Notes: generated by a model from the sequence alone, not told the origin. A stretch of DNA of 64,000 nucleotides from Acidobacteriota bacterium (GCA_965249005.1 CBDFLD010000016.1:342264-406263); one strand, 5' to 3'; numbered from the stretch's first letter, positions 7,249 through 33,013 are shown. Numbers and translations are program-made.

Positions 7249-8374
7249 CTTCCACCTTTCGGGCGCTTTTGGTGATATCGAACAACTCCAGCGCCCTCTT
7301 CTTCCCCGCATCCCCTAGTCGCTCTCGCAACACGTCATCGTTCGCAAGCCGTGTGATACAGGCGGCCAGCTGATCCGGGCGATGCCTGTCGACCAGGAAA
7401 CCGGTCTCGCCATCGCGAACGATCTCGGGCGTGCCCCCTACCCTAGTTGCAATAACGGGCAGTCCACTGGCCATGGCTTCAATATTGACGTTTGGCGCGG
7501 GATCTTCGTATCGAGACGGAACCACGAGCATATGCAGCTGCGCATAGACCGACTCGATCCTGTCGGTCCAACCGGCAAATCTGACGTATTCCTGCAGATG
7601 ATGCTTCAGAATGAAATCGAACAAGTACTGATGATAGGCAACCTCCTTGTCGAGCTTGCCCACCAATACGAAGCGACACCTCGATGTCGTTGCTGCAACC
7701 ATCTCTGCGGCTAACAAGAAGTCTTCGATCCCCTTCTTTATGCTGAATTGCCCGGCAAAACCCACAAGAACCTCAGCTGTCTCATCTCGCCGCTCCCGGA
7801 TTTTCTCGCTTGATGCCGGGTGAGAGAACTTGTCGAGGTCAACACCGTTGTGCACCACAAGCGTCTTCTCTTCCGAAACCCCCACTCTCAAGAATCCTCT
7901 TTTGACAGCCAGCGAATTCATCACAACCCTAGAACTTGTCCGGTTGATCCATCGGGCCACCCACCGAGAAACGAGGCTGTCATCGGGAATGTCGCCCACA
8001 TAAAAAACAATGGTCCTCCGAAGCACGAACCTCAAGAACAGGATAGCCGGTAAGGCATTGACAAAGGCATGGACGTTCAGAACGAGGACGACCCGGCATC
8101 GCCGTTTGACACAGGTAACGACCACGACCACGTAAAGTATCGGCATCTGTAGAATATTGATGAGCGTCCAGAGGGGATGAGCCCGACCCAGGTACCCGAA
8201 CGATGTCTTCGTGAAAGGAAGATTGTGCCGCGTCAGCAAGCGACTCACAGTCCCATCCTCCCACCTAGAGATCAAGAAAACCGGCCTCACGCGCTTCATG
8301 TGAAGCAAAGATGTGACAGCCCTCGTTTCCCTGCCGAAGGCCTCAGCGCCCATTCCCAATATCAGACTGTTCAC
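7229..8374 (-). CDS. GT4-family glycosyltransferase
   Basis: The EX7E region is VPSRYEDPAPNVNIEAMASGLPVIATRVGGTPEIV...GETGFLV. Confidence 0.85.
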   Translation of the reverse strand: MNSLILGMGAEAFGRETRAVTSLLHMKRVRPVFLISRWEDGTVSRLLTRHNLPFTKTSFGYLGRAHPLWTLINILQMPILYVVVVVTCVKRRCRVVLVLNVHAFVNALPAILFLRFVLRRTIVFYVGDIPDDSLVSRWVARWINRTSSRVVMNSLAVKRGFLRVGVSEEKTLVVHNGVDLDKFSHPASSEKIRERRDETAEVLVGFAGQFSIKKGIEDFLLAAEMVAATTSRCRFVLVGKLDKEVAYHQYLFDFILKHHLQEYVRFAGWTDRIESVYAQLHMLVVPSRYEDPAPNVNIEAMASGLPVIATRVGGTPEIVRDGETGFLVDRHRPDQLAACITRLANDDVLRERLGDAGKKRALELFDITKSARKVEDVLLRG

Positions 8375-22890: not shown

Positions 22891-23430
22891 ATGTTCTCCG
22901 GAGATTGGCGCCCCGGCAGTTTTGCTAGAGTCCCCACCAATCTCGTGGATACAGAAGTCCTCATCCGGGGCATGGGACCTCCCAAAATGGACCCTCGAAT
23001 GGTAGACGGACTGCTTCGCTTCATAGAGCTGGAGAATCAGGACAAGAAACTCTTGTGCTGCTCGTATGCCATGGTCGCCGCGGTTCGCTTGGCGTTGTGG
23101 TTGCTACCGTTTCGCACGACCCGGGCACTTCTGGACCGCATCCCCCGAAAACGGGAAGACCGGGCAGTCGCGCCCGAAAGACTGAGCTGGGCTGTCCGGA
23201 CATCAAGCCGTCGAGTATTGGGGGCGTCTTGCCTGACCCAGGCTCTTGCACTTCTCGTACTTTTGTCGCGCCAAGGACAGGTAGCACAGCTACGCTTTGG
23301 CGTCTGCCAGGACAGGACTCAAGGTTTTCGGGCTCACGCTTGGCTGATACTCAAGGGGAAGATCTTGATCGGGGAGGAACTCCTGGATCAATACACACCC
23401 ATCCGCATGCTGGGGAGTGAAGTCCGATGA
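22891..23430 (+). CDS. lasso peptide biosynthesis B2 protein (transglutaminase-like Cys protease, leader peptidase)
   Basis: 179 aa. The Cys...His...Asp arrangement CCSYAMVAAVRLAL...GVCQDRTQGFRAHAWLILKGKIL matches the McjB C-terminal/Transglut_core3 consensus (C..SLAL...L...G....L.IGV......F.AHAWVE..G). Confidence 0.85.
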   Translation: MFSGDWRPGSFARVPTNLVDTEVLIRGMGPPKMDPRMVDGLLRFIELENQDKKLLCCSYAMVAAVRLALWLLPFRTTRALLDRIPRKREDRAVAPERLSWAVRTSSRRVLGASCLTQALALLVLLSRQGQVAQLRFGVCQDRTQGFRAHAWLILKGKILIGEELLDQYTPIRMLGSEVR

Positions 23431-25289
23431 GCGGGATCGCCGGTGTCTTGTCCATGGACGAACCGTCGGTCGACCCCGGCATCGTTGCGGTCATGCTGGA
23501 GAGACTCGCGCGCAGGGGGCCTGACGGCCAAGGGCTCTGGACACAAGGCTCACTGTCGCTCGGGCACCGCATGCTAAAGGTAACTCCGGAATCGATGAAC
23601 GAGCATCTTCCATTGGTCAAAGACGAGATCGTTCTTACCTGCGACGCACGAATCGACAACCGCATCGAGTTGATCCGCGGGCTAAGGCTCCGCTCGGCGC
23701 CTGCCGACAGCGAGCTGATTCTGAGAGCCTATCAGGAGTGGGGAGTTCGTTGCCCAGAGAAGCTCCGGGGAGACTTTGCGTTTGCACTCTGGGACATAAA
23801 GAAGAGATGTTTCTTCGCCGCGCGAGATCGGATTGGGATAAAGCCCCTGTACTACGTATTGAATTCGAAGACCTTCGGCGTGGCCTCCGAAATATCCCCT
23901 TTGTTCGAAATCCCGAACGTTGCAAAAAGGCCCGACGTGGATTCTCTGAACGAATTCCTGGACCTCACGGTTGTGCCGGCGGACCGGACGCTCTATGACG
24001 GATTACGCCGGCTTCCGCCCGGACATACTCTGGTCCTGCAAGGCGGTCGAATGAGGCTGGATCGCTACTGGGCGCCAAATCCTCAGCTGGAGATGCGCCA
24101 GCCCAGCCTGTCGCAACATGCGGAGGAGTTTCGCGATCTCTTCTCAGAGGCAGTTGCGGCACAGATGCGAACATCGTCTGGGGTGGGGTGTCTGCTGAGC
24201 GGAGGTCTCGATTCATCCTCTGTTCTTTGCGTGGCAGCGGATGCGGCACCGGCTTCCGAGGCGCCGGCCGCATTCTCGATGATCTTCGATTCACTCGGCT
24301 GCGACGAGCGGGAGTTCATCCAAGAGGTGACGCGAAAGACCGACGTTCCGAGCTATGCGGCCGCCGTGGACGGGGCCGAGTCGTCGACGCTGCTCCAGAA
24401 ATACTCCTCGATGTGTCCGGACTGGCCTGTTCGCGGATTCTGCCCTACCGCTATCTGGCCGTTGATGGAACTTGCGCGCAAGGGTGGAACACGCGTCATG
24501 CTCACGGGACACGGCGGGGATCATGTCGCGGAAGGCAACCTGTCATCCCTGACGGATCTCATGAGGACAGGTCACGTGTCGGAGCTCTTGAGACAATTGC
24601 AGCCCTTTCGCTACGCACCCTCAGTGTGGATGGAATTCGTCATCAAACCGCTTCTGCCAAGGAGCTTCAAGAACCTGGCTCGGTGGCTGCTTCGCGCCGA
24701 AACAACCACCCTGCGCCAAAGCACCCTGCGTGAAAGCACCCTGCGCCAAAGCACCCTGCGCCAAAGCACCCTGCGCAAAAGATCGAATAGAGCGTTAGAG
24801 GGAGAGCGATCCGATCCATGGACACGGAACGGGAGCCACTTTGCGCACCAAGAGGCCCTGGCCCTGTTGTCGCCGAGTACGAGCCTGTGGCTCGATGGTT
24901 ATTGGGATGTTCTGGGCAGCCTATTTGGGATGGAGTTCCGGCACCCCTTTTTCGACTCTCGACTCATCGAGTACCTCCTGACGATTCCTCCGCAAGAGAA
25001 ACTCTGGGGAGGACAGACCAAGGTCCTCTTGCGAGAAGGAATGGATGGAATTCTCCCCGAACAAGTGCGTAACCGAACCGGAAAAGCGGAATTTTCACCT
25101 CTCGTAGAACACCAGCTCAAGCGCCTACCGTCACCTGCCATACGATCTCTTCGCCTGGCGCAGGACGGCTTTGTCAACCGAGAAAGACTTGCAACACTCA
25201 ACGGCGGATCGAAGCCTGGCCAGAGCAACAGCATCTCGCTATGGCCGGTTCTGTGTTTGGACGCCTGGTATGAAGCCAACTTCAATTGA
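23427..25289 (+). CDS. lasso peptide cyclase C (asparagine synthetase B homolog, macrolactam synthetase)
   Basis: 620 aa. It has an AsnB-like N-terminal domain but starts MSGIAG, with Ser where the glutaminase nucleophile Cys2 would be. The PP-loop is LLSGGLDSSSV. Its ATGA start overlaps the B2 stop. It contains the coding repeat (STLRQ)x5. Confidence 0.85.
   Translation: MSGIAGVLSMDEPSVDPGIVAVMLERLARRGPDGQGLWTQGSLSLGHRMLKVTPESMNEHLPLVKDEIVLTCDARIDNRIELIRGLRLRSAPADSELILRAYQEWGVRCPEKLRGDFAFALWDIKKRCFFAARDRIGIKPLYYVLNSKTFGVASEISPLFEIPNVAKRPDVDSLNEFLDLTVVPADRTLYDGLRRLPPGHTLVLQGGRMRLDRYWAPNPQLEMRQPSLSQHAEEFRDLFSEAVAAQMRTSSGVGCLLSGGLDSSSVLCVAADAAPASEAPAAFSMIFDSLGCDEREFIQEVTRKTDVPSYAAAVDGAESSTLLQKYSSMCPDWPVRGFCPTAIWPLMELARKGGTRVMLTGHGGDHVAEGNLSSLTDLMRTGHVSELLRQLQPFRYAPSVWMEFVIKPLLPRSFKNLARWLLRAETTTLRQSTLRESTLRQSTLRQSTLRKRSNRALEGERSDPWTRNGSHFAHQEALALLSPSTSLWLDGYWDVLGSLFGMEFRHPFFDSRLIEYLLTIPPQEKLWGGQTKVLLREGMDGILPEQVRNRTGKAEFSPLVEHQLKRLPSPAIRSLRLAQDGFVNRERLATLNGGSKPGQSNSISLWPVLCLDAWYEANFN
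24707..24781 (+). repeat. 15-bp tandem repeat x5 (caccctgcgccaaag) inside the cyclase gene, encoding TLRQSTLRESTLRQSTLRQSTLRK
   Basis: There are five consecutive 15-mers with 0-2 mismatches each. The repeat is in frame. Confidence 0.85.
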
Positions 25290-25308
25290 AACAAGGAGCG
25301 AATCACCC

Positions 25309-25488
25309 ATGGAAAAGCAAAACCCTAAGGATATTACGGTAGAGGAACAAGAAAAGACCAGTCCGTCTCAGCAGAAGGAATACACGACTCCACAGCTGAC
25401 AGAATACGGAAAAGTCGCCCAGGTCACCGGTGGACGTCCGGGCACGACGCGTGACTTCGGCGGGACTTCTCCAGCCTTCCCCGGATAG
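25309..25488 (+). CDS. lasso peptide precursor (A): a 41-aa leader plus the 18-aa core GRPGTTRDFGGTSPAFPG
   Basis: 59 aa: MEKQNPKDITVEEQEKTSPSQQKEYTTPQLTEYGKVAQVTG|GRPGTTRDFGGTSPAFPG. The RBS aaggag lies 10 nt upstream. The leader matches the YxxPxLx3Gx5TxG consensus exactly (Y25, P28, L30, G34, T40 at position -2). The core begins with Gly1 and has Asp8 as the ring acceptor, followed by bulky Phe9 and Phe16 as candidate plug residues. Confidence 0.85.
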   Translation: MEKQNPKDITVEEQEKTSPSQQKEYTTPQLTEYGKVAQVTGGRPGTTRDFGGTSPAFPG

Positions 25489-25507
25489 CGCCGGAGTTTG
25501 CCGACAC

Positions 25508-26410
25508 GTGATCGCAAAGCTAATCCGGAAAAAACGCCAGGCGTACTGGGCCTCGCTTGAGAGTGATCTGCCCCTAGGAACCCTTCCCGTTGGAGCCTCT
25601 GATCTGAGCACAACGGTCCGGATCCGAAGAACGGAGCACTCCAGACCGGCCCAAGGCACATTGGACCGCATGGAATGCTTCGTACAAGGGAGGCACCTCC
25701 TCGCCACGGGAAAGAGCGATCGCTGTCTCACAATCGATGGCGTCGGAGAGTTCTTTCTCGGCCAGGGTATGCAAGAGATCCAGTACCGTCACTTCCCGGG
25801 CGGCACCTCCAAGTTGATCGGCTACTGGCTTCTCCACTCCGTTCTACCCTTCCACCTTTTCTCCCAACGTAGTTTGGAGTTTCTTCATGCCAGCGCGGTT
25901 GCGATCGGAAGATTGTCGGCGGCATTCTTGGCGCCCTCTCATGGTGGGAAGTCCACACTTGCGGAGTACTTCGTGCGGAGGGGCCACCCACTAATCACTG
26001 ATGACAAGCTGGGAATACTGCAGTCCAACGGACAGTACCTGGCTGTGCCGGGAGTTCCCTTTCTTCGTCCCTATCGGAGATCCGAGGACCTGGGGTATCG
26101 CATCGAGAACTTTGCACGGGAGCCTCTTCCGCTTGGAACCTTGTACGTACTCCAAGCCAAGGATCCCGAAGCTCCGATCAAGATCAGGGAACATTCCCCT
26201 GCCGAGGCATCATGGGCCTTGACACAAAACTGGGAGTTTCGAATCGCGTCTAGAATCAAGGAGCGTTTCGAATACTTCGCCGACCTGGTGGCATGCACAA
26301 GGGTATGCAGCATCGAAATCCCGCGAGACCCAGCCCGGTTGCCCCAAGTCTACACCGCCGTTTGCCAAGACCTGGACGGATTGAAACAGCCTTCTGCTCA
26401 AGCCATCTGA
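25508..26410 (+). CDS. HPr kinase/phosphorylase C-terminal-domain homolog (lasso-peptide Ser/Thr kinase, PadeK-like)
   Basis: HASAVAIGRLSAAFLAPSHGGKSTLAEYFVRRGHPLITDDKLGIL matches the HprK P-loop block (H.gv.v.G.gvLI.G.SG.GKSetAleLv.RGHrLvaDD). A GTG start at 25508 follows a GGAG; the alternative ATG start is at 25670. Confidence 0.75.
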   Translation: MIAKLIRKKRQAYWASLESDLPLGTLPVGASDLSTTVRIRRTEHSRPAQGTLDRMECFVQGRHLLATGKSDRCLTIDGVGEFFLGQGMQEIQYRHFPGGTSKLIGYWLLHSVLPFHLFSQRSLEFLHASAVAIGRLSAAFLAPSHGGKSTLAEYFVRRGHPLITDDKLGILQSNGQYLAVPGVPFLRPYRRSEDLGYRIENFAREPLPLGTLYVLQAKDPEAPIKIREHSPAEASWALTQNWEFRIASRIKERFEYFADLVACTRVCSIEIPRDPARLPQVYTAVCQDLDGLKQPSAQAI

Positions 26411-26465
26411 GCTCATTTCGTCCAAGAAGGGAATCCTTTACCGTCCACTCTGAACAGGAGCTGCA

Positions 26466-26765
26466 ATGTCACCGAATCTCGAATCCAGAGTTGAAATCGC
26501 ACCGGAGATTGTCTACCAAAAAGTCGGCGAGGAAACCGTATTCCTGAACCTTCACACCGGCTTCTACTACGGTCTCGACTCAGTAGGAAGTCGCTTCTGG
26601 GAATTGCTGTCGGATCAGAGGGCTCCGATGCTGAGCGAGGTTCTCGAGGCAATCACCCGAGAATATGATGCTCCCACCGACAGGATCCAGATGGACATTC
26701 TGGAACTGGTGGAAAACCTTCATGCCAAAGGGCTGGTCACGCTGCCGACAGAGGCCGACTCGTAA
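26466..26765 (+). CDS. lasso peptide biosynthesis B1 protein (PqqD-family RRE, leader-binding)
   Basis: 99 aa. EIVYQKVGEETVFLNLHTGFYYGLDSVGSRFWELLSDQ...EVLEAITREYDAPTDRIQMDILELVENLHAKGLV is a canonical PqqD fold signature. The RBS is aggag. Confidence 0.85.
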   Translation: MSPNLESRVEIAPEIVYQKVGEETVFLNLHTGFYYGLDSVGSRFWELLSDQRAPMLSEVLEAITREYDAPTDRIQMDILELVENLHAKGLVTLPTEADS

Positions 26766-26769
26766 ACAA

Positions 26770-27456
26770 ATGAATATTCTCAATCGCGAAACGGTCCTGA
26801 AGCGCTGCTCAGAGCTGCGTATCCGCCTCGATCCAGGCAACCGCCTTCAAATATCGAACGACCGTCATCGGATCGAATGTCGGGGACAGGGACTTTCGAT
26901 CCTCGAGGTCTTCGCTCACCCGACGAGCGTCGGCGAGGCGATCCAGAAGCTGGGCACGAACCTCCCGGGTAGCCAGGCATTCGTAGACCTTGTCAACATG
27001 ATCATGGAGCTCCACCAGGCCGGAATCCTGGAATCGATCGATGGACGAACTTCGCCCCCGGATCCCGAGCCCGCCGGATTTGGCGCACCGCAGATCCACG
27101 TCCAGATGCTCAACGACCGGGAGCGAACTGCCAAGTACATCCAAGCCATCCGCGAGGTTGTCCGAGAAGGCGATGTCGTGGTCGAGATCGGCACCGGCAC
27201 GGGAGTGCTATCGGTGGCAGCAGCCCAAGCGGGCGCACGGCATGTCTATACAATTGAGGAAACCGGGATCGCAGATGGTGCGGAAGCCGTATTTGCGGCA
27301 AACAATCTGCAGAATCAGATTACGCTGGTACGCGGAAGATCCACCCAGGTACAGATACCCGAACGAGCGGATGTCCTGGTCAGTGAGGTAATCGGAAACG
27401 AGCCTCTGGCTGAAAAGGTCGTCCAGTATACACTGGATGCGCGCACTAGGCCTTAG
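26770..27456 (+). pseudogene. 5' part of an RRE-like/PRMT-like (protein arginine methyltransferase fold) methyltransferase gene, interrupted by an IS1380-like insertion
   Basis: The ATG lies 5 nt after the B1 stop. The N-terminal ~90 aa are PqqD/RRE-like (LRIRLDPGNRLQISNDRHRIECRGQGLSILEVFAHPTSVGEAIQKL). Motif I is VVVEIGTGTGVLSVAAAQAGARHVYTIEE, and the double-E loop is VLVSEVIGNEP. The ORF ends ...DARTRP* exactly where the IS begins. Confidence 0.7.
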
Positions 27457-29302
27457 TCCAGCGTGATTTTTTGCATGAGGAGGAAGAAAAGCCCTGGAAC
27501 GTGCGCCGTTACGGGATAAAATGCGTTTGATATATTTACAAGACATCCCGAAAGGAGCACATTCCAGGTGAATAAAAGAAACCACAGAATCCTCCTCCGA
27601 GACAAGCAAAATCTTACACGCCGGTTGGAAAGAAATCAGTTTGAGGACCGGTCCGATCCTATGTTCAAGGACTCCAACACCTACTACGAGATCGCCGAGA
27701 GAACGCGCGCCATCGGATCTGGTGGTATCGGAGCCATTCACAAGCTCGTGTGTAAGCTTGGATTGGACAAAGATATCAACAGAAACATCGTTTTGCTCAA
27801 GTACCACTTTCCTTACTGGGAATCCGATCATGTACTGAACATCGCATACAACGTCTTGTCGGGTGGAACCTGTCTCGAAGATATCGAGCGGTTGCGCCAG
27901 GATGAGACCTACATGAACGGACTGGGAGCCGAGAGGATTCCGGATCCCACGACGGCTGGAGATTTCCTCCGTCGTTTCGATGAGGATTGGATCTTCGGAC
28001 TTCAGGAAACCATCAATGAAACCCGAACCAAGGTGTGGAAGTTGCAGGATGCTTCCTTCCGGAAGGAGGCCATCATCGACGTGGACGGGACCGTCGCCGG
28101 AACCTTGGGGGAATGCAAGGAAGGAATGGACATTGCCTACAACGGGATCTGGGGTTACGCACCGTTGATCGTGACCTTGGCCAATACGAATGAGGTCCTC
28201 TATCTGATGAATCGGCCGGGCAACCGTCCCTCTTCCGACGGAGCGGCCGAGTGGATGGACCGGGCAATCGATCTGGTGTCGTCGGTGTTTACGAAGGTCT
28301 GGCTTCGGGGCGACACGGATTTCTCGCTGACGAGAAACTTCGATCGCTGGGACGAGCGGGTTGGTTTTGTCTTTGGTTATGACGCCAAGCCGAACCTGGT
28401 CGGGATGGCCGATGCCCTGCCGGAGAGACAATGGAAACCGCTCGAGCGGCCTCCTCGTTATGAGGTCAAGAGCGAAGAACGGCGCCGTCCGGAAAACGTC
28501 AAAGAACAAGTAATCAAGGAGAGAGAATTCAAGAACATCCGCCTGCAGAGCGAGCAGGTCGCCGAGTTTGACTATCGTCCCGGACACTGTAAGAAAACCT
28601 ATCGCATGGTTGTGGTTCGGAAGAACCTCACGATCGAAAAGGGGGAGCACCGGCTGTTTGATGAGGTCCGGTACTTCTTCTACATCACCAACGATCGGGA
28701 GATGACGATGGGAGAAGTGGTCCTTTTTGCCAACGATCGCTGCAACCAGGAAAACGTCATCGGTCAGCTCAAGAGTGGAGTGAACGCCTTGAGGATGCCT
28801 TCGGACAGTCTGGTATCGAACTGGGCCTACATGGTCATCGCATCGCTGGCGTGGAATCTGAAGGCCTGGTATGGCCTGGTGACGCAGGCGCCGACAGTAC
28901 GTCGTGATATCTTGAGGATGGAGTTCAAACGCTTCCTGGTGAACTTTGTGCAAATACCCTGTCAGATTGTAAGAACCGGTCGTCGCCTCGTTTACAGGAT
29001 ATTGGCCTATAGCAAGCATCTCGAAACCTTTTTGGCGACGTTCGACTATATCAGGCAACTCAGGTTTACTTGAAGGCGCCTCGCCGGCGGGTGAGCCCGT
29101 ACCCCCGGCGGAGCAAGAGTGGCGGGCGAAAGGAAGGGCATAACAGAGACAAACAAGATCAAGTGATCCAGACAACCAATGGAAGGTTTGTCTCTTGTGT
29201 TTCTCTTTGCTTTCCCTGTTACGCACAAGGAGCTGAAATCCACGAGATATTCGGAAAAGGCAAACGATTTTCCGAGCGAGCTCATACCTCGCTTATTTTG
29301 GG
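27451..29302 (+). mobile_element. IS1380-like (IS4-superfamily DDE) insertion sequence, about 1.85 kb, inserted into the methyltransferase gene
   Basis: It is flanked by the 6-bp direct repeat ACTAGG (27445-27450 and 29303-29308). Deleting 27451-29308 joins the two methyltransferase fragments in frame. The imperfect terminal inverted repeats start CC (ccttagtccagcg / RC cccaaaataagcg). It contains a single 501-aa transposase ORF. Confidence 0.7.
27568..29073 (+). CDS. IS1380-family DDE transposase (full length)
   Basis: 501 aa. The blocks are DVDGTVAGTLGECKEGMDIAYNGIWGYAPLIV (D...E..YNG.....PL) and the C-terminal NDRCNQENVIGQLKSGVNALRMPSDSLVSNWAYMVIASLAWNL, as in IS1380-type transposases. 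Confidence 0.8.
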   Translation: MNKRNHRILLRDKQNLTRRLERNQFEDRSDPMFKDSNTYYEIAERTRAIGSGGIGAIHKLVCKLGLDKDINRNIVLLKYHFPYWESDHVLNIAYNVLSGGTCLEDIERLRQDETYMNGLGAERIPDPTTAGDFLRRFDEDWIFGLQETINETRTKVWKLQDASFRKEAIIDVDGTVAGTLGECKEGMDIAYNGIWGYAPLIVTLANTNEVLYLMNRPGNRPSSDGAAEWMDRAIDLVSSVFTKVWLRGDTDFSLTRNFDRWDERVGFVFGYDAKPNLVGMADALPERQWKPLERPPRYEVKSEERRRPENVKEQVIKEREFKNIRLQSEQVAEFDYRPGHCKKTYRMVVVRKNLTIEKGEHRLFDEVRYFFYITNDREMTMGEVVLFANDRCNQENVIGQLKSGVNALRMPSDSLVSNWAYMVIASLAWNLKAWYGLVTQAPTVRRDILRMEFKRFLVNFVQIPCQIVRTGRRLVYRILAYSKHLETFLATFDYIRQLRFT

Positions 29303-29836
29303 ACTAGGTTCCTCAGAGACAATGCAAGGTTTGTGCCCAATCGGCTGGACGTTTATGGTTTGCCCGTCGTCGTGACCGAGGAGCAGCTGGCGAGGCACCT
29401 GTTCACGGAGACAACAGCAAAGCAGTGGCAGGATTGGTACGGAATAAGATTCCAGCCACTCACAGAACTCTCCCGAAATTCGCCTCATCCATGTTTCATT
29501 CGGCCACGGGACGCACGCCGATGGCAGAGCCTGAGTGCGCCAATCTTGTTGTCGAGCTATGACCTGGCGGAGACAGCGACTCCAGTCGTCCAGAACTCCG
29601 CCGGCAGCGTTGCCACCGCGCAGGGAGAGTGCAACGGATTGCTCGTGTTCTTCGAAGTACAGCTCGGACCTACAACCCGTCTCTCGACTCACCCGGAACA
29701 CGCCGGGGAAGCCAGTTCGTGGTATTCGCCCCTCTGGACTTTACCCGAGCCCATCTCACTTCACAGAGGAGATCGATTCGAAGTCCTCTACAAACATGAC
29801 GGCGACATGGGCCGTGTATGGGTTCGACGTTCCTAG
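29303..29836 (+). pseudogene. 3' part of the interrupted PRMT-like methyltransferase (C-terminal beta-barrel with THW-like loop)
   Basis: Read in frame from the right-hand ACTAGG: TRFLRDNARFVPNRLDVYGLPVV...SWYSPLWTLPEPISLHRGDRFEV. This parallels PRMT ...[21 protein letters not shown]...[22 protein letters not shown]. Confidence 0.7.
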
Positions 29837-29856
29837 ACACATTGTGCGGGCACTAG

Positions 29857-31059
29857 GTGAGAAACGCGATCTTGCAACCTGAACAAGACGTCCTGCTCTG
29901 CTGCGCACGCAGTGCGCTCGATACGGGGAGCCGATTACGGCTCGCGAGTCTGCTCCGAAATGTAGTGGATTGGGATTATCTATTTCGCACCTCGCAGCGT
30001 CACGGTCTACTTCTATTGCTCCACAAGCATTTGATCGCCTGCGGAAGCACTGCGATTCCACCATCAGTCCTGCAGCGGATCAAAGACCACTTCCACCGAA
30101 ATGCGGCGCGCAACCTTCACATGACAGCCGAGCTATGTCGCGTCTTGGACTACCTGGAAGGCCACGGCGTCAGTGCCCTTCCATGGAAGGGTCCGGCACT
30201 GTCCGCATCCCTGTACGAAGACCTGACCGCACGGCAATATGACGACCTGGACGTACTGATTCGGGTCGAGGAGGTACCACGCGCTTTGCAACTGCTCCAA
30301 CGAATCGGATATCAGCCCCAATTCAGCCTCGGCGGCGCAGAAGAAGAAGCCTATCTCAGATCCAAATGCGAGTACGCGCTGGTGGAGCCACAAAAAGCCG
30401 TGGTTCTGGAAATACACTGGAGGATCGTTCCCAGGTACTTTTCCATCGATCTGGACATCGCTCCCCTCTGGGAACGGACGGACGCAATCACCCTGGGGAA
30501 CTCCAGAGTCCAGACACTCAAGAATGAAGATCTGATGATTCTTCTTGCAATTCACGGCGCATCGCACCTCTGGGATCGAGTTGGCTGGATCTGCGATCTC
30601 TCCGAGCTCCTTGCCCCGGCACACTCGTTGGACTGGGACTGGATTCTAAGGGAAACGAAGCGTCTCGGCTGCCGGCGGATCTTGATGTTGGGACTGAATC
30701 TGGCCAGTCAACTGCTAGGACAACAAATTCCGGACCAAATCGAAGGACATGTTCAGGAGCGATCGGCGACCCGGCTTGCCGAGACCGCCCGGCGTCGTCT
30801 TTTTCGAGACCACTGGGAGCAGCCCGGAATCGTCGAAGTCAACTATTTCCTGGTTCGGTCTCGCGAGCGATGGATGGATCGGGTCTTGTTCTGTATCCGC
30901 CTTGCGACGACAACCTCACCCGAAGACTGGGCCTTCTTGCGGCTCCCGAGGCTCTTGTTCCCCCTCTATGTTTTCGTTCGCCCCTTTCGATTGTGCATCA
31001 AATACTTTTCTTCCTACTGGCGGCAATCCGGATGGGGAACGGACGGTTCGAATGCGTGA
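29857..31059 (+). CDS. NTP_transf_5-type nucleotidyltransferase, an accessory enzyme associated with the lasso cluster
   Basis: 400 aa. VLLCCARSALDTGSRLRLASLLRNVVDWDYLFRTSQRHGLLLLLHKHL...LPWKGPALSASLYEDLTARQYDDLDVLI matches the 'uncharacterised nucleotidyltransferase' family that recurs in lasso BGCs. The stop overlaps the ABC exporter start. Confidence 0.7.
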   Translation: MRNAILQPEQDVLLCCARSALDTGSRLRLASLLRNVVDWDYLFRTSQRHGLLLLLHKHLIACGSTAIPPSVLQRIKDHFHRNAARNLHMTAELCRVLDYLEGHGVSALPWKGPALSASLYEDLTARQYDDLDVLIRVEEVPRALQLLQRIGYQPQFSLGGAEEEAYLRSKCEYALVEPQKAVVLEIHWRIVPRYFSIDLDIAPLWERTDAITLGNSRVQTLKNEDLMILLAIHGASHLWDRVGWICDLSELLAPAHSLDWDWILRETKRLGCRRILMLGLNLASQLLGQQIPDQIEGHVQERSATRLAETARRRLFRDHWEQPGIVEVNYFLVRSRERWMDRVLFCIRLATTTSPEDWAFLRLPRLLFPLYVFVRPFRLCIKYFSSYWRQSGWGTDGSNA

Positions 31060-33013
31060 TCCTCTCTTCGAGAAATATCTTACAGCAGTCGTCGAGATCC
31101 TATCATGGAAGGTGGTGCTCGCCGTCGTATTGATGGGCCTCGTGAGTCTGAGCGAAGGTATAGGCCTCATGCTGCTGATTCCCTTACTGCAGCAGACCGG
31201 ACTCGACGTCTACCAGGGATCCCTGGGGACGGTTGCGCGTTTCTTATCGAGGGCTTTCGAATTCGTGCATCTCGAAGCTCGCTTGCCAACCGTGCTGGGC
31301 TTCTACTTGACGGTCGCGGTCTTGATCGGCTGTCTATCTCGATGGGAATCCATACTCAAGTTTCAACTGGTTTACCGTTTTGTCTCTGCCTTGCGCCTCC
31401 GCCTCTATGACGCCGTTGGCCGAACCAGCTGGGAGTTCTTTGCGCGATTGCGGTCGTCCTCCATCGCGCACGTACTGACCACCGAAGTGGAACGAGTCGG
31501 AGCCGCCACTTTTCATTTGATGCAACTCGTCTCGCTGGCAGCCATTTCCCTGACGTACATCGGTTTTGCCTTTGCGCTATCCTGGGGCATGACCGCAGTG
31601 GTTTTTGTTGCCGGGATTCTCCTGCTATTGGCCCAGAGACGACAGCTTGTCGTCGCACGAGCCGCCGGCAGGGACACGTCCGAGGAAACCAGGGGGCTTT
31701 TCGCCGCGATTTCGGAGCATTTGAGCGGCATGAAGACCGCGAGGTGTCATGGTCTTGATCTCCAGCTGGCTGAGTCCTTTTCAGCGCAGACCTCGAAGGT
31801 GAAGGTAGCATCCCTCCGTTCGGTCTTCAATCAAGCAGATACCAAGTTCCGGTTGGATCTTGGACACACCTTGATTCTGGGTGCAATCCTTTACGCCTCC
31901 ATCGAACTGGTCCAAATTGCAGCCGCGGAAGTCCTTCTGCTGCTATACCTTTACGCACGCCTTATGCCCAGACTGTCCGGAGTTCTTCAAAGCTACCAAG
32001 GCTTTATGAATCTGTTGCCAGCATACGCCGCCGTTTCAGAGCTGGAGGAAGAATGTGTCGCAGCCCCCGTGGTTCGAACGAGTCACGCCCAAGATATCGA
32101 GCTCAGAGAGGGAATTCACTTAAAGGGAGTATCGTTCCAGCATGATCGCCCCGTGCTCGAAGATCTGACCCTGTCCGTCGAGGCAGGCCGAGTGACTGCC
32201 ATCGTGGGACCCTCGGGAGCGGGTAAGAGTACCATTGCCGAGCTCGTAATCGGATTGATCCAACCGCATCGCGGTTCCGTATGGGTCGACAATACCCCTC
32301 TTGCCCCCGAACACTTGTCGAGTTGGCGAAGGCAGATCGGCTATGTTTCCCAGGACGGCTTCCTGTTTCACGATACCGTCCGCGCAAACCTGCTGTGGGC
32401 CAATCCACAGGCTACAGCCGAACAAATCAAGCGTGCGCTGTGCATGGCCTCGGCAGGATTCGTGGAACGACTACCGGAGCGGTTGGACACCATCGTCGGC
32501 GACCGCGGAATCCTACTCTCTGCCGGGGAAAAACAGCGCCTCGCGATAGCGCGTGCCTTGATCCGTGAGCCCTCACTCCTGATCTTGGACGAGGCAACCA
32601 GCCAGCTGGACTCCGAAAACGAAGAGAACGTCCTGAACGCCATGGACCAGCTCCGAGGTTACACAACGATATTGACCATCGGACACCGTCCCAGCACAGT
32701 GCACAGAGCCGACACGATCCATATCCTGGATGCCGGCACCATCATAGAGTCCGGCCCATGGAATGAGCTGACAAAACGGGTTGGTGGCCGCTTCCCGATC
32801 CTCTCCTTGGCCCACGGAGTGGAGGCGGATCTAGACGGCCAAGCGCCACCCGCGCGCAGCGCTTCGGAGATCGAAGGCCACGGTTCAGGACACGGGCCGC
32901 TGACCGGCACTTCCGTTTCGCGACGCCTCGACCCAGTCGCGAATTCCAATGAGGGCCACCGGGATAACGACGGGAAAGGCCAGAAACAGGGTTCGGCCGG
33001 GATTGCCCCATAG
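31052..33013 (+). CDS. ABC exporter (fused TMD-NBD, McjD-like lasso peptide export/immunity protein D)
   Basis: It has six transmembrane helices. Walker A is GPSGAGKST, the signature motif is LSAGEKQRLAIARAL, Walker B is LLILDEAT and the H-loop is TIGHR. The last ~60 aa (a Gly/His-rich tail) may be read-through, because a convergent membrane-protein gene overlaps it. Confidence 0.8.
   Translation: MRDPLFEKYLTAVVEILSWKVVLAVVLMGLVSLSEGIGLMLLIPLLQQTGLDVYQGSLGTVARFLSRAFEFVHLEARLPTVLGFYLTVAVLIGCLSRWESILKFQLVYRFVSALRLRLYDAVGRTSWEFFARLRSSSIAHVLTTEVERVGAATFHLMQLVSLAAISLTYIGFAFALSWGMTAVVFVAGILLLLAQRRQLVVARAAGRDTSEETRGLFAAISEHLSGMKTARCHGLDLQLAESFSAQTSKVKVASLRSVFNQADTKFRLDLGHTLILGAILYASIELVQIAAAEVLLLLYLYARLMPRLSGVLQSYQGFMNLLPAYAAVSELEEECVAAPVVRTSHAQDIELREGIHLKGVSFQHDRPVLEDLTLSVEAGRVTAIVGPSGAGKSTIAELVIGLIQPHRGSVWVDNTPLAPEHLSSWRRQIGYVSQDGFLFHDTVRANLLWANPQATAEQIKRALCMASAGFVERLPERLDTIVGDRGILLSAGEKQRLAIARALIREPSLLILDEATSQLDSENEENVLNAMDQLRGYTTILTIGHRPSTVHRADTIHILDAGTIIESGPWNELTKRVGGRFPILSLAHGVEADLDGQAPPARSASEIEGHGSGHGPLTGTSVSRRLDPVANSNEGHRDNDGKGQKQGSAGIAP

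Follow-up and report, generated by a model that had tools for sequence, protein, structure and literature searches.

A lasso peptide gene cluster from an Acidobacteriota bacterium pairs an HprK-like kinase with a core peptide that ends in glycine

The 64,000-nucleotide stretch of DNA from an Acidobacteriota bacterium analyzed here (GCA_965249005.1 CBDFLD010000016.1:342264-406263; the window, taken at its whole length) contains, at 22891-33013 on the plus strand, what its sequence indicates is a complete class II lasso peptide cluster of co-directional and tightly packed genes. In order, these encode a leader peptidase (B2), a lasso cyclase (C), the precursor peptide, an HprK-like kinase, a PqqD-family recognition element (B1) for peptides made by ribosomes and modified after translation (RiPPs), a split PRMT-type methyltransferase, an NTP_transf_5 protein (N), and an ATP-binding cassette (ABC) exporter. 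An initial annotation of the segment 25508-31059 had proposed that the core peptide, ending in Gly rather than Ser, must be phosphorylated at an internal Thr or Ser, unless the chemistry differs; the same segment also holds the PqqD/B1 gene and the methyltransferase gene split by an IS1380 insertion sequence (IS), neither of which it mentioned. The cluster extends the known theme of phosphorylated and phospho-glycosylated lasso peptides and, although it has precedents, is a credible pointer to a modification site that has shifted.

The 59-aa precursor (25309-25488, +) reads MEKQ...YTTPQLTEYGKVAQVTG and then the core GRPGTTRDFGGTSPAFPG, with the leader encoded at 25309-25431, the core at 25432-25485, and a TAG stop at 25486-25488. 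The leader carries YTTPQL, an instance of the YxxPxL motif, at positions -17 to -12, followed by Thr(-2) and Gly(-1), and the precursor scores 19.2 bits against the NCBIfam model lasso_leader_L3 (cut-off 19). Gly1 and Asp8 of the core fit an isopeptide ring, for which the first residue should be small and one of positions 7-9 should be Asp or Glu. As the initial annotation had read it, the core ends ...TSPAFPG, with Gly18 encoded by GGA directly ahead of the stop codon. The same 18-residue core occurs in P0246, P0247, and P0248, the precursor being called as a gene in three assemblies; the leaders differ at 5-6 positions in two other assemblies, with the core unchanged. Because the core is identical in three assemblies, the C-terminal Gly is genuine.

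Several routes to a hidden terminal Ser were considered and rejected. Sequencing error or truncation, as with PsmA, is contradicted by the identity of the core in two other assemblies and by the GGA codon, which no single-base substitution turns into a Ser codon. Neither read-through nor a frameshift creates a terminal Ser, and a whole-window motif scan of both strands recovered only one leader-bearing open reading frame (ORF), leaving no second precursor gene that ends in Ser.

The kinases PadeK, ThcoK, and PsmK act on the linear precursor, whose C-terminal Ser they (poly)phosphorylate, and PsmN then puts one or two hexoses on the peptide phosphate (PMC6993621; PMC9266682). The premise of the initial annotation, that known lasso kinases target only this Ser, is outdated: BsfK of Bradymonas sediminis (Duan et al. 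2023) phosphorylates core Ser3 of GTSGNEVDGSTPADRGNNPGD, a peptide ending in Asp, from a cluster that also has a nucleotidyltransferase gene and whose B1 protein accelerates the kinase (PMC10368454). Ser3 is also the site phosphorylated by LppK (2026), the kinase of a linear RiPP family (PMC13381572). The window core offers neither acceptor, as a terminal Ser is missing in all three assemblies and position 3 is Pro, with no Ser or Thr there. The proposal of a new regiochemistry thus holds insofar as neither documented site exists in the core; it is weakened by the facts that internal phosphorylation is already published and that non-Ser ends are widespread.

The kinase ORF (25508-26410, +) begins at a GTG located 19 nt past the precursor stop codon, has PqqD as the next gene, and encodes a 300-aa HprK/PEPCK-fold P-loop kinase-like protein, identical to database protein P0001 and assigned by profile, alignment, and fold comparison. 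Its N-terminus matches relatives only with the start at 25508. A start at ATG 25670 was rejected: in the protein that starts at 25508, the alignment with relatives begins near residue 10, in a region where the model shows confident strands. The P-loop, RGH, and DD motifs of the initial annotation are all present: APSHGGKST at residues 142-150 (25931-25957), RRGH at 157-160, and TDD at 164-166, with Asp165 and Asp166 encoded at 26000-26005; LHASAV lies upstream at residues 126-131. Pfam Hpr_kinase_C gives the window kinase 16.7 bits versus a 33.3-bit gathering score, and a single-sequence phmmer comparison with the PDB gives E = 0.008. From the P-loop to the DD pair, however, a profile built on seven relatives matches HprK/P of L. 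casei (E = 2.8e-9), so that the outcome named in the initial annotation as a refutation, a lack of true HprK_C homology in a profile search, did not occur; full-length fold similarity is greatest to PEPCK. Reference kinases for alignment (PbaK, LppK, and BsfK) were recovered from paper text or supplements; the PbaK, LppK, and N-protein sequences were machine-read and may include errors. Relative to BsfK residues H148, G168, K169, S170, D186, and D187, the window kinase keeps His127, Gly147, Lys148, Ser149, Asp165, and Asp166; mutagenesis indicates that H148, G163, K169, S170, D186, and D187 matter in BsfK (PMC10368454). The protein is therefore a true HprK/PEPCK-fold P-loop protein.

Relatives of the window kinase carry the Pfam tag PF27840 (ScmC), which marks a family of unknown function that accompanies radical-SAM/SPASM enzymes; the substrate of PEPCK, the closest fold, bears a carboxylate; and the precursor leader holds a K-T-S-P-S stretch of its own. 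These features would suit other chemistry, such as formation of an acyl-phosphate at either Asp8 or the carboxylate that ends the peptide, transfer of phosphate to a Ser or Thr in the leader, or a ScmC-like role as a non-catalytic scaffold. We consider such alternatives improbable, given that all characterized RiPP-associated HprK-like proteins (PadeK, ThcoK, PsmK, BsfK, and LppK) are Ser O-kinases, that the catalytic His/Lys/Ser/Asp-Asp set is conserved, and that phospho-Ser is a known substrate for the partner N enzyme. The appearance of T-S-P in leader and core alike is, by rough estimate, consistent with chance.

The NTP_transf_5 nucleotidyltransferase-fold protein (29857-31059, +; 400 aa) is of the PsmN/PbaN/BsfN type. 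Its fold is as clear as the initial annotation held, with membership in PF14907 at 196.4 bits (cut-off 31.2), and it is a homolog of PbaN (27.5% identity over 356 aa, E = 6.5e-26, by BLASTP against the machine-read reference); a BLASTP match to BsfN, likewise machine-read, covers 191 aa at 27% (E = 3.4e-6). WKG is found at residue 110 and an acidic DDLDVLI motif at 129-135, a position comparable by inspection to the essential metal-binding pair D134/D136 of PsmN (PMC6993621). By analogy, this protein would decorate the peptide phosphate.

The remaining core genes are those expected of a lasso cluster. B2, a transglutaminase-like Cys protease (22891-23430, +; Pfam Transglut_core3, 75.1 bits; NCBIfam lasso_biosyn_B2, 85.1 bits, cut-off 33), is given with the bounds of its maximal ORF, although translation may in fact begin at an ATG further in, at 22972-22999. 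The asparagine-synthetase-like cyclase (23427-25289, +) matches Pfam Asn_synthase (175.9 bits) and GATase_7 and scores 452.6 bits against the NCBIfam lasso cyclase model NF033535, under its strict 525-bit cut-off. Within this gene, 24707-24781 forms an in-frame tandem repeat of a 15-nt unit, five copies encoding (S/T)TLR(Q/E), which is also kept in a 99%-identical homolog of another assembly. The PqqD-family RiPP recognition element (RRE), or lasso B1 (26466-26765, +), reaches 56.6 bits with Pfam PqqD and 45.1 bits with NCBIfam lasso_PqqD_Bac, the latter below the model cut-off. The MsbA/HepA-like ABC exporter, with permease and ATPase fused (31052-33013, +; Pfam ABC_tran, 113.2 bits; ABC_membrane, 49 bits), has a start that overlaps the NTP_transf_5 stop by 8 nt. 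A scan for promoters and terminators gave no signal above shuffled expectation.

The PRMT-type methyltransferase ORF is not intact in the window. Its 5' part, encoding the S-adenosylmethionine (SAM)-binding domain (26722-27450, +; Pfam PrmA, 40.6 bits), is separated from its 3' part, encoding the beta-barrel/oligomerization domain (29309-29836, +; Pfam PRMT5_C, 30.8 bits; PRMT_C, 21.1 bits), by an IS1380-family element together with one copy of its flanking repeat (27451-29308, +; NCBIfam transpos_IS1380, 297.5 bits, cut-off 180), within which the transposase ORF spans 27568-29073 (+). The 5' part corresponds to the 244-aa database protein P0272 and aligns to the methyltransferase of another kinase locus, L002, up to residue 124, where it stops at 27450. 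A 6-bp direct repeat, ACTAGG, flanks the element (27445-27450 and 29303-29308), and deleting 27451-29308 (1858 bp) restores an in-frame protein equal to the intact 418-aa P0271 of another assembly, from which it differs only by the 16-residue earlier called start of P0271. The insertion has inactivated the enzyme in the window genome, and it is recent and strain-specific because IS-free methyltransferase alleles exist; with the identical transposase on 18 contigs, the element is active in the lineage.

Intact P0271 is PRMT-like across its catalytic and beta-barrel domains, matching the PRMT7 structure over residues 126-367 (E = 1.5e-23) as well as the PRMT6, CARM1, and PRMT1 structures (range E = 1e-23 to 1e-17). 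An enzyme of this type might conceivably methylate Arg2 or Arg7 of the core, though this is only a possibility, and we came across no publication that connects lasso peptides with enzymes of the PRMT type. In 50 of the 83 loci compared (L002 and L005-L083; window 26722-29836), the kinase has a PRMT-like methyltransferase directly downstream. Many cores beside such a gene have no Arg (NAGPKGNLDGGGGAAAGPKTGT), and some neither Arg nor Lys (GSGTMMMDGAIIMVQI, L093). About 100 residues without a Pfam match (26770-27050) extend the window protein at its N-terminus, and the L002 homolog has a C-terminal extension instead; either extension could be a peptide-recognition domain.

Homologs of the kinase are numerous. 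Of 8,000 candidates scored in a profile search, more than 3,157 proved to be kinase homologs, and a scan of GTDB species genomes confirmed at least 439 kinase loci. From these, 80 loci, mostly from Acidobacteriota and Cyanobacteria, were surveyed, with gene tallies made by tblastn over 83 loci: the cyclase was found in 81, the methyltransferase in 50, and N in 45. The usual order in Acidobacteriota and Cyanobacteria is PqqD-C-A-K (A and K being the precursor and kinase genes), in many loci followed by the PRMT-like methyltransferase and, further on, by NTP_transf_5 and the ABC exporter. A terminal Ser is found in only 3 of the 92 candidate precursor ORFs at these loci. Instead, 69 precursors have [KR]-T near the C-terminus, the Thr being followed by 0-3 residues, and [KR]-S is present in a few from Cyanobacteria; these ORFs lie just upstream of the kinase, at about 7500-7900 in most of L004-L083. 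In nine cores the Thr of [KR]-T is the sole Ser or Thr, and there it is the obvious predicted phospho-site; NAGPKGNLDGGGGAAAGPKTGT exemplifies the class, of which we found no published description. Because the surveyed precursors almost never end in Ser, the terminal-Ser rule is a property of one branch rather than of the family. At L002, a precursor-like ORF (2225-2344) that overlaps the 3' end of the cyclase gene has a good leader, YQCPQLRVYGDVRELTL, and a core of about 10 residues, NNPRGTGHIE, which is too short for a threaded lasso.

The window kinase is itself distant from the [KR]-T branch (about 26% identity over 242 aa), to which PbaK is nearer (29% over 208 aa). It is more similar to two other groups, with which it shares APSxGGKST and the absence of a loop of about 25 residues that follows the DD strand in other branches. 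The first consists of kinases from radical-SAM clusters (40% identity over 301 aa; L001, L084, L085, L100, and L101), arranged B2-A-K-radical-SAM/SPASM-PqqD with no cyclase (L001 6303-9230; L084; L085 7082-10200; L100 4642-7741; L101); at L085 there is no cyclase within 8 kb on either side of the kinase. Their leaders are lasso-like, with YxxPxL and Val(-2), and their cores are short and Gly/Val-rich ([SA]GVVG..PSI...), including SGVVGSAPSIVIQ, AGVVGFVPSIVIQ, AGVVGSAPSIMGIGG, SGVVGSAVSSV, and SGVLGDGPSSV. These cores keep one Ser followed by 2-6 residues, which in AGVVGFVPSIVIQ is the sole hydroxyl. Such clusters may form a RiPP class of their own, with a relationship to the "SynChlorMet" ScmC/D/E cassette. 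The second, a large group, comprises Campylobacterota kinases (Sulfurovum, Sulfurimonas, and Thiomicrolovo; 31% over 292 aa, E = 4e-48) from lasso clusters with the order ABC-B2-kinase-cyclase-precursor-PqqD (L098 5811-11332; L102; L103 2741-9664; L104). All four of the precursors read there end in Ser, on otherwise unrelated cores (...NGSSLVPS, ...LLGDILS, ...GGAGGGS, and ...GWAHAS). The same four clusters are without an N gene. In all, roughly 800 members of the clade to which the window kinase belongs were found.

Among the lasso members of its kinase clade, then, the window peptide really is the odd one out. One reading of this is that an ancestral terminal Ser was lost and that the kinase is left without a substrate in a decaying cluster, as might be suggested by the Ser ends of all of its nearest lasso-type relatives, the non-canonical P-loop A-P-S-H-G-G-K-S-T, and the methyltransferase broken by the IS. 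We give this little credence. The kinase ORF is unbroken, and its counterpart in another assembly, P0125, shares 96% identity with it, with the same P-loop and mostly conservative changes; the Ala at the first Walker position is common to the whole clade; and the insertion, as noted above, is a recent, strain-specific event. Across three assemblies, moreover, the core stays constant despite changes in the leader. Together, the conservation of the kinase in a second assembly and the invariant core indicate selection rather than decay.

The general model that the kinase phosphorylates an internal core hydroxyl of the precursor has, in our judgment, about an even chance of being correct. By their domain families, PqqD/B1 would bind the YxxPxL leader, B2 would cut after Thr(-2)-Gly(-1), cyclase C would join Gly1 to Asp8, and the ABC pump would export the product. 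By homology with PadeK, PsmK, BsfK, and LppK, the kinase would use ATP to phosphorylate a Ser or Thr hydroxyl of the linear precursor before leader removal, and the NTP_transf_5 protein would then extend the phosphate, as PsmN does with hexose. With no Ser at the C-terminus of the core and none at position 3, the acceptor would have to be another hydroxyl, and phosphorylation of T5, T6, T12, or S13 would constitute a third positional variant. Our best guess, tentatively held, is Ser13 or the adjacent Thr12, since a conserved Ser is found in both sister groups of the kinase, whether as the last residue or with 2-6 residues after it. Ser13 is the hydroxyl nearest to the C-terminus, with five residues after it, similar to ...PSIVIQ and ...PSIMGIGG of the radical-SAM group; the distant [KR]-T class likewise holds a conserved hydroxyl 0-3 residues from the end. 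The fuller scenario, in which the acceptor moved from a terminal Ser to Ser13/Thr12, the NTP_transf_5 protein builds a phospho-glycosyl plug, and the PRMT-type enzyme methylates the peptide where it is intact, is, as a whole, less likely than not. If true, a bulky mid-tail phospho-glycosyl group would act as a steric plug just below the ring, and methylation in strains with an intact PRMT-type gene would be, as far as we found, the first such lasso tailoring.

Several observations count against this placement, or against the kinase assignment behind it. Ala142 and His145 of the window kinase replace the Walker-A glycines equivalent to BsfK G163 and G166; substitution of G163 lowered BsfK activity, while G166A was neutral (PMC10368454). 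We found no characterized member of the window-kinase clade, and we infer its activity on the peptide. The sister groups were defined with a low-resolution neighbor-joining tree that serves as a rough guide only. In addition, three kinases of 27-29% identity to that of the window, from loci with the same kinase-then-PqqD order (L092-L094), accompany cores such as GSGTMMMDGAIIMVQI whose hydroxyls lie in the ring only. Finally, both mapped non-C-terminal sites, those of BsfK and LppK, are at core position 3, adjacent to the leader, which favors Thr5/Thr6 over Ser13.

These last points lead to the alternative of phosphorylation within the ring, at Thr5 or Thr6, where the RRE-bound leader would bring the stretch of core nearest to it within reach of the kinase. 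The Ser3 sites (PMC10368454; PMC13381572) and the acceleration of BsfK by B1 would both accord with such a geometry. So would the cores of L092-L094 and L097 (GSGTMMMDGAIIMVQI and GSGGTNFDGGASRTLR; GSGTMMMD... and GSGGTNFD...), whose hydroxyls are solely or mainly in the ring and often part of Gly-Thr, like G4-T5 of the window (L097 shares the kinase-then-PqqD order and the 27-29% identity of L092-L094); the L003 core (AAGATNTD...) also has Thr5. The ring of paeninodin (AGPGTSTPD...) is very similar to that of the window peptide, yet paeninodin is phosphorylated at its C-terminal Ser. Ring Ser and Thr are, furthermore, common in lasso cores generally, BsfK is just 38% identical over 76 aa, and the closest kinase relatives (Campylobacterota and radical-SAM) conserve a terminal or near-terminal Ser rather than a ring Ser/Thr. 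We therefore consider a ring site unlikely, and retain Ser13/Thr12 as the preferred candidate.

Phosphorylation and phospho-glycosylation are rare among RiPPs, and the documented acceptor positions are two, the C-terminal Ser and Ser3. The window cluster is a compact system in which to examine how kinases guided by a leader select their target residue, because its peptide can use neither position and its kinase belongs to a clade in which we found no studied member. For genome mining, the survey shows that, Bacillota and Campylobacterota aside, most kinase-linked clusters break the terminal-Ser rule and have [KR]-T near the end instead; that a PRMT-type methyltransferase is a frequent partner of the kinase, one on which we found no literature; and that the same type of kinase also serves cyclase-less radical-SAM RiPP clusters. 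Current understanding is extended rather than overturned, as internal phosphorylation by such kinases has been in the literature since 2023.

Among known systems, the window cluster resembles the paeninodin/pseudomycoidin type (PadeK, ThcoK, PsmK with PsmN, and PbaK/PbaN) in its split B1/B2, cyclase, and ABC exporter, and in having an HprK-like kinase gene beside the precursor together with an NTP_transf_5 gene; the DD pair is at 165/166 in the window kinase and at 158/159 in PsmK. In precursors of that type the last residue is a conserved Ser, which receives (poly)phosphate and afterwards hexose, whereas the window core ends in Gly, and the PRMT-type methyltransferase is an addition. The window kinase matches PbaK over about 98 residues only (30%, E = 6e-8), reads APSxGGKST rather than GxSGxGKST, and is without a loop of some 25 residues behind the DD strand.

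The bsf cluster is likewise a lasso system with K, N, B1, B2, C, and D genes, a Gly1-Asp8 ring, and a non-Ser end (Asp); its kinase acts on an internal residue with the help of B1 and shares the catalytic H...GKS...DD with the window kinase. However, the two kinases are alignable over 76 residues only (38%), the BsfK site Ser3 corresponds to Pro3 in the window, the Bsf leader has Ile(-2) rather than the canonical Thr(-2), and there is no methyltransferase. The LPP peptides of Bacillota (LppK/LppN/LppB) also combine a kinase, a discrete RRE, an NTP transferase, an MsbA-like exporter, and a [Y/W]xxPx[L/V] leader (PMC13381572); unlike the window, they have no cyclase or B2, use a signal-peptidase-like protease, and are modified at Ser3, and LppK is a marginal match to the window kinase (E = 0.13). 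The kinase-linked clusters of Acidobacteriota and Cyanobacteria contain the same gene set as the window, including the PRMT-type methyltransferase and N, but differ in gene order, the window having K then PqqD, and their precursors carry the [KR]-T, 0-3 residues from the end, that is absent from the window core.

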